Part shown: positions 1 through 131 of the stretch, piece after piece
Numbering within the stretch: position 1 is the first letter of the stretch
Layout: each line of letters begins with the position of its first letter
Source: a virus
Taxonomy: Duplodnaviria; Heunggongvirae; Uroviricota; Caudoviricetes
Length of the DNA stretch: 7,825 bases
Reading direction: 5' to 3' (one strand)
IMG/VR virus record: IMGVR_UViG_2706794687_000012
Position numbers and translations under genes: made by a program
The notes under the pieces: generated by a model
Seen by the model: only the letters and a program-made list of their open reading frames with translations
Told to the model about the DNA's origin: nothing
Databases searched by the model: none

Positions 1-131
1 TCAATGATCGGAAGTATGCCAAATCGTGATCGATTGTGATGCCAAACTGTGATCGGAGATGGATGCCAAATCATGATCGATTCGAATGCCAAACTGCGAT
101 CGATTCAGATGCCATTTTGCACACTGAGTAC
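1..131. repeat. Tandem direct repeats, unit about 23 bp, 4 full copies plus partial copies at both ends; each full copy carries a GATC site; array starts at or before the window edge
   Basis: Copies at 16-38 atgccaaatcgtgatcgattgtg, 39-62 atgccaaactgtgatcggagatgg, 63-85 atgccaaatcatgatcgattcga, 86-108 atgccaaactgcgatcgattcag; degenerate copy from 109; positions 1-15 match the 3' part of the unit. GATC at 6-9, 28-31, 51-54, 75-78, 98-101 (spacing 22-24 bp). Overlaps the last codons of the minus-strand ORF ending at 71. Confidence 0.85.

Follow-up and report, generated by a model that had tools for sequence, protein, structure and literature searches.

The window, by which we mean the whole 7,825 bp stretch of DNA that was analyzed, begins with a tandem array of short GATC-containing repeats that abuts a degraded phage-type tail gene. 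The latter is a minus-strand pseudogene of a Felix-O1-type baseplate/hub-like tail gene at positions 122..815, delimited by comparison with an intact homologue and with relatives of the window that are free of the insertion described below. Codons for its residues 75-256 lie at 667..122 and those for residues 1-49 at 815..669 in a different frame, and a 74 bp internal deletion at about position 668 shifts the frame. The gene is intact (262 amino acids) in E. coli O177:H21 and MSB1_9I; the intact homologue used here (positions 9373-10161 of the O177:H21 locus, L003) matches phrog_3721 with an E value of 3e-130.

The tail pseudogene belongs to an integrative island of about 11.5 kb that adjoins wrbA, and a copy of this host DNA without the insertion lies between ymdF and wrbA in E. 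coli MSB1_9I (about 14600-25900 of locus L034). Its genes include a large serine recombinase, a small recombinase, a DNA N6-adenine methyltransferase, a 331 amino acid winged-HTH protein with weak similarity to the replication initiators of phages, and a number of small unknown ORFs. There are only two phage structural genes, the tape measure (PF20155) and the baseplate/hub-like gene, both closest to those of Felix-O1-like virulent phages, and no capsid or terminase genes were found in the island. Among 5,426 E. coli genomes, between 58 and 426 carry the tape-measure gene, and they do so in chromosomes only. The island is a candidate phage satellite, or may be a stable remnant with a link to the Felixounaviruses. 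One further minus-strand ORF of 252 amino acids (3482-4240) has homologues that RefSeq calls "transposase"; it has no Pfam or PHROG match and contains an 18 bp tandem repeat of 2.5 copies at 4057-4104, and the annotation of its homologues looks doubtful.

The first 131 nucleotides of the window read tcaatGATCggaagt ATGCCAAATCGTGATCGattgtg ATGCCAAACTGTGATCGgagatgg ATGCCAAATCATGATCGattcga ATGCCAAACTGCGATCGattcag ATGCCATTTTGCA cactgagtac. Tandem Repeats Finder reports a period-23 array between 5/16 and 102/114 (4.3 copies, 70-73% matches, scores of 78-90) and a still stronger period of 47 bp that spans two units (84% matches, score 136). Four copies of the motif ATGCCAAAYNNNGATCG are present, at positions 16, 39, 63 and 86, where 0.08 are expected, and none of 200 shuffled sequences contained as many. 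GATC occurs at positions 6, 28, 51, 75 and 98, with spacings of 22, 23, 24 and 23 bp. The 7,825 bp window has no GATC besides these five, while shuffled versions of it contain 22.6 ± 4.4. These measurements bear out an earlier reading of this DNA, made from the sequence alone, that had described GATC-bearing tandem repeats of about 23 bp spaced 22-24 bp apart. That reading had counted at least four full and two partial copies; the count we obtain for positions 1-121 is five complete units of 22-24 bp, each with a GATC, plus 5 nucleotides of a sixth.

The nature of the array became apparent from its distribution. A distant blastn search of positions 1-400 against 50,697 phage records gave matches only at the ends of Stx2 prophage records, in features annotated as "transposase, partial", and a mobile element was therefore suspected. 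When positions 1-200 were compared with 5,426 complete E. coli genomes, 2,832 matching places were found in 1,902 of them, with as many as 34 places in a single genome; the matches to the first 121 nucleotides are 95-100% identical and lie on both chromosomes and plasmids. The 121 nucleotides also match 449 plasmids from Escherichia, Shigella, Salmonella, Klebsiella and others, and copies on S. sonnei, E. albertii and E. coli plasmids are 100% identical to the window, although the visible part differs by one nucleotide from most copies. An assembly artefact, which had been named as something to check, is ruled out by the recurrence of the array in about 1,900 complete genomes.

The right boundary of this mobile DNA can be placed exactly. 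Six aligned copies are identical up to ...GCCATTTTGCA / ...GATGCCATTTTGCA, which ends at window position 121, and are unrelated beyond it, where they continue with CACTGAG, GGGAGAA, CCCTGAT, ACTAATA, ACCTGAC and ATAGCAG, respectively. All blastn matches stop shortly after position 121, and the alignment with relatives of the window that lack the element starts at position 122. Some blastn matches end as far out as 126-143, but the alignment shows that this is chance similarity in the flanking DNA, and an extension of the element to those positions was rejected. The array thus does not span 1-131, as had been proposed; it ends at 121, and positions 122-131 are part of the interrupted host gene. 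The insertion at 121/122 removed the last 7 codons of the tail gene, and the reading frame consequently runs on into the inserted DNA until it meets a stop at 71-73. It had been noted that the array crosses the stop codon of the tail ORF at 71; the frame does end there, but this stop is not the native one. In E. coli O177:H21 the same element lies at the same locus 272 bp further out, and the offset could reflect either an independent insertion or a deletion adjacent to the element.

With the terminus fixed, the units were phased from it by reading the minus strand inward from position 121. The terminal repeat L1 (TGCAAAATGGCATCTGAATCGATC) occupies 98..121 and begins with the 5'-TG terminus; on the plus strand its last letters are ...GCA-3' at 119-121, and by comparison with IS5376 (PMC10122671) this CA-3' would be the end that is joined to target DNA. 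Inward from it, and defined by the motif together with the phasing, lie L2 (GCAGTTTGGCATTCGAATCGATC) at 75..97, L3 (ATGATTTGGCATCCATCTCCGATC) at 51..74, L4 (ACAGTTTGGCATCACAATCGATC) at 28..50 and L5 (ACGATTTGGCATACTTCCGATC, or ACGATTTGGCATGCTTCCGATC as listed among all of the end units) at 6..27, all on the minus strand. Of L6 only the first 5 nucleotides, ATTGA, remain at 1..5 (minus strand), where the window edge cuts the unit; in full copies it reads ATTGATTGGCATCCTGCCAGTCAC and is degenerate and GATC-less. The array had been suspected to run past position 1, and it does so, but only by the remainder of this single degenerate unit: in full copies unique sequence and then the istA gene follow L6. 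L2 resembles L4 and L3 resembles L5, which accounts for the 47 bp super-period. Two conserved blocks, TTTGGCAT and CGATC(A), recur in each unit at a distance of roughly one helical turn, and the first of them follows the pattern (A)nnrTTTGGCAT. Since GATC is part of the second block, its regular 22-24 bp spacing is simply the unit length.

Complete copies of the element show what the window contains. In E. coli MS 200-1 (locus L004, 1483-4121) it is 2639 bp long and carries istA and istB, and window positions 1-121 are the reverse complement of its first 121 nucleotides with one mismatch (99.2% identity). There and in O177:H21, istA lies about 105 bp downstream of the array and is followed by istB. 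The MS 200-1 IstA (511 amino acids) scores 283.6 bits against the NCBIfam model NF033546 "IS21 family transposase" (cutoff 160), and its IstB scores 257.8 bits against NF038214 (cutoff 200); IstA is also homologous to the IS5376 IstA, whose complex with DNA has been solved (PDB entries 8b4h/8q4d), with about 54 bits over the catalytic region. The element ends in 5'-TG...CA-3' with imperfect inverted repeats, TGCAAAATGGCAT... on the left and ...AGCGGAATACGCA on the right. Target duplications of 5-6 bp, a length within the 4-8 bp range that marks the family, were found around three complete copies: CTCCC in O177:H21, TCAGGG in MS 200-1 and GGCAT in locus L011. These come from copies other than the one in the window, whose own second end lies outside it. 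In MS 200-1 the target just past the 6 bp duplication reads TGCGT, which is also the first 5 nucleotides of the right end of the element, and this match may be accidental or may hint that the element inserted beside an end-like sequence. The right end itself, seen in a complete copy and thus outside the window, has three like units, the terminal R1 (TGCGTATTCCGCTCTATTCGATC), R2 (ACGGATTGGCATCGAAGTCCGATC) and R3 (AGCGATTCGCATCCATTCGATC), with GATCs 22 and 24 bp apart, and eight of the 13 GATCs of the whole element lie within its two ends.

The RefSeq name of the istA/istB pair in annotated copies is "IS21-like element ISSso4 family", and the name ISSso4 is also used for Shigella sonnei and E. 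coli in ISfinder-based studies. Our use of it follows the RefSeq/NCBIfam annotation and describes a likeness that consists of 99-100% identity to the istA-proximal end, the same termini, istA and istB, and 5-6 bp duplications. The element is an insertion sequence (IS) in that it is multicopy, lies in unrelated contexts and has empty sites in relatives, and it is of the IS21 type in that complete copies in O177:H21 and MS 200-1 carry both istA and istB and that multiple direct repeats of 22-24 bp are present at both ends (five plus one degenerate on the left and three on the right). The window holds only its left end, since the rest of L6, both genes and the right end lie to the left of position 1. 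We regard it as very nearly certain that window positions 1..121 are the minus-strand L-TIR of an ISSso4-like IS21-family element (IS positions 121 to 1) that was inserted into the 3' end of the phage-type tail gene. The array is therefore an already known feature of a known and very common IS. A Tn7-like end was also considered in the present analysis, from TGTGCAAAATGG read as a 5'-TGT terminus, and was dropped when the complete copies showed istA/istB and a true terminus, TGCAAAATGG, at position 121.

The sequence-only reading had offered quite different homes for the repeats, namely a Dam- and SeqA-controlled origin, a site like the P1 pac site, or plasmid iterons or a centromere. A replication origin or P1-type pac site, in which the methylation state of clustered GATCs is read, has two points in its favor: all five GATCs of the window fall within 121 bp, and four of them are in the context TGATCG, resembling the TGATCA/G hexamer that is the P1 pac motif. 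In a P1-type pac site the hexamer clusters flank a cleavage region; the site lies beside pacase or terminase genes and occurs once in a phage genome, but the neighbors of this array in complete copies are istA and istB rather than terminase or replication genes, the array is the end of a multicopy mobile element found in hundreds of unrelated contexts, and the search of the 50,697 phage records gave nothing P1-like. In addition, IS21-family relatives whose hosts are taken as Dam-less also have a GATC in every unit, and the nearest Aeromonas relative lacks it (below). We give an origin or pac role virtually no credence. The resemblance to the P1 pac site and to the ends of IS10 and IS50 consists of clustered TGATCR/GATC motifs within a protein-recognition region; the present array has no packaging context, its spacing follows from the 23 bp unit, and the GATC is shared with relatives taken as Dam-less.

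A set of iterons or a partition centromere that belongs to the island, or else to a plasmid, and is bound by the winged-HTH protein of the island or by a ParR-like protein fares no better. Tandem repeats of 20-25 bp are typical of iterons, and the 331 amino acid island protein does show weak similarity to replication initiators (phrog_8102, E 1e-9). The copies of the island that are free of the IS have no array, however, and align with the window only from position 122, so the array is a property of the IS and not of the island, and it travels with istA/istB. A site of this kind would be single-copy, lie beside rep or par genes and be present in all copies of its replicon, and that is not the pattern we find. 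We consider such a role scarcely credible, and the winged-HTH protein that had been put forward as the binder is encoded by part of the host island rather than by the IS; the predicted cognate protein is IstA. The view that the repeats are a DNA-level signal and not a peptide repeat, on the other hand, was correct, in that the array appears to be a set of sites for a sequence-specific DNA-binding protein. Taken as a whole, the earlier interpretation is partly supported.

Because the window stops inside the IS, the 121 bp could in principle be a solo or relic end, a non-functional scar left for example by a deletion. Degraded and shortened arrays without an intact istA do exist (loci L005 and L006), and the island around the insertion is itself decaying, as the 74 bp deletion in the baseplate-like gene shows. 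Against this, the 121 nucleotides are identical to plasmid copies, and the annotated copies examined (O177:H21 and MS 200-1; 99.2%) have complete istA/istB; all five units are undamaged, unlike those of the decayed relics; and a complete copy lies only 272 bp away at the same locus in a related strain. A relic end is thus quite unlikely.

What might the repeats do? The TIRs of IS21 elements are built from several direct repeats (L1-L2 and R1-R2) that are 23 bp apart, and cryo-EM and biochemical work on IS5376 showed that integration needs two complete repeats at each end (PMC10122671). In each IS5376 repeat two conserved regions about 10 bp apart are contacted by HTH-1 and HTH-2 of IstA, the catalytic IstA subunits occupy the terminal repeat and structural subunits the second, and insertions are flanked by 5 bp duplications (PMC10122671). 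The ends described here share with IS21 and IS5376 the 23 bp direct repeats that start from a 5'-TG...CA-3' terminus, the two blocks about one helical turn apart, and the presence of more repeats on the left than on the right (PMC10122671). They differ from IS5376 in the sequences of the blocks (here TTTGGCAT and CGATCA) and in having 5-6 left and three right repeats, compared with the two per end that were studied; the two IstA proteins are only distantly related, and the ISSso4-like one, at 511 amino acids, is the longer. Because the array fits the IS5376 description point by point, we assign the units as probable IstA-binding sites, with cleavage expected at the terminal CA. A functional analogy can also be drawn with the ends of Tn7 (bound by TnsB) and phage Mu (bound by MuA), which likewise have several transposase sites per end, left/right asymmetry and a DDE transposase that acts together with an AAA+ partner (PMC10122671); these belong to other families with other site sequences and spacing, and no membership is claimed.

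By homology with the IS5376 IstA-DNA structure, the two blocks of each unit would be read by the two N-terminal helix-turn-helix domains of IstA. IstA bound to the outer two repeats of each end would then form a tetrameric synaptic complex, for which L1 and L2 (window 75-121) are the predicted core sites; this complex would cut at the terminal CA-3' (window 120-121) and, with the IstB ATPase, insert the element and generate the 5-6 bp target duplication. The left end has 5-6 repeats compared with the two that are structurally needed, and the inner repeats L3-L6 may serve in cooperative loading of IstA, in distinguishing left from right and/or in repression of istA. This role of the inner repeats is the least supported part of the scheme. 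A simple promoter scan found no sigma-70-like promoter in the whole IS at the tool's threshold, and autorepression through the inner repeats therefore stays a conjecture.

Comparison with other members of the family indicates which features of the units are kept. Nine close relatives from Salmonella, Serratia, Klebsiella, Buttiauxella, Rahnella and Enterobacter (70-84% nucleotide identity) retain the two blocks while the spacers drift, though GATC was the point at which their units were delimited, and its invariance in the comparison follows from that procedure. The number of units among them is 4 to 6, and the shorter arrays among relatives differ by about two units (L015 and L005). A scan of genome contigs with IstA gave matches in Enterobacterales only, and more distant relatives were therefore taken from a plasmid collection; all ten of these (IstA 30-52% identical) have units of about 23 bp, 4-6 of them at the left end and 2-4 at the right. 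ISEc12 (E. coli), ISRme9 (Cupriavidus), ISBmu3 (Burkholderia) and a Bradyrhizobium IS21-family element share with the ISSso4-like element both the 23 bp multi-repeat ends and a GATC in every unit, and differ in an IstA that is 42-47% identical and in the other, second block. In the remaining elements the units lack GATC: the nearest relative, from Aeromonas (52%), has CCGGCCA in its place, ISAs29 has GTGAACAC, the Pseudomonas/Stutzerimonas elements have CCGGCCAC and a Neotabrizicola element has GTGGGCAG, and the units of an E. faecium element are also without it. In ISRme9 and ISBmu3 (loci L026 and L027) four direct GATC units are followed by four inverted ones, giving a large palindromic array upstream of istA; no inverted second set of units was seen in ISSso4.

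From these comparisons GATC appears to be one of several alternative recognition blocks, and its presence does not appear to track Dam-positive hosts. The elements from Cupriavidus, Burkholderia and Bradyrhizobium, hosts taken as Dam-less, have GATC in every unit, and it is missing from the nearest Aeromonas relative; no Dam signal is evident for these reasons. Dam could still act in addition to the IstA-site role of the array, with (hemi)methylation of the unit GATCs modulating the loading of IstA and so coupling ISSso4 transposition to passage of the replication fork. The GATC lies within the conserved recognition block of all 5-6 left and three right units, the host is Dam-positive, the sites will be methylated in E. 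coli, and for IS10, IS50 and IS903 it is established that Dam exerts control through GATCs in the ends to which the transposase binds. Across the family, however, GATC does not follow Dam-positive hosts (Aeromonas is Dam-positive and its element has no GATC), and with up to 34 places per genome the element clearly does transpose in E. coli and Shigella, which are Dam-positive. No paper tying IS21-family transposition to Dam was found in the literature searched. We hold such modulation to be unlikely; it would be a regulatory layer linking IS21-family transposition to replication in enterobacteria that is undescribed for the family.

For the window itself, identification of the array is of consequence mainly for annotation, in which the array is best masked as the end of a mobile element and not labeled as an origin, pac site or centromere. 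In screening, a dense and even GATC cluster at the edge of a window or contig is a typical signature of an IS21-family end. The only reason why the array was conspicuous here is that the Felix-O1-like DNA around it wholly avoids GATC. Positions 122-7825 contain no GATC where 17-26 are expected (the loci L030, L003 from 9122 to its end, and L001 were also examined), and other 4 bp palindromes are near expectation, with milder deficits of CTAG (3 versus 12.7) and TATA (16 versus 29.3). Copies of the island without the IS, the serine recombinase gene included, likewise have none where about 30-35 are expected, and 14.8 kb of Felixounavirus garuso has none where 45-52 are expected. The lack of GATC in Felix-O1-like phages has been reported (PMC5477317, PMC4690856), and a GATC-free chromosomal island suggests that it comes from, or travels with, such phages.
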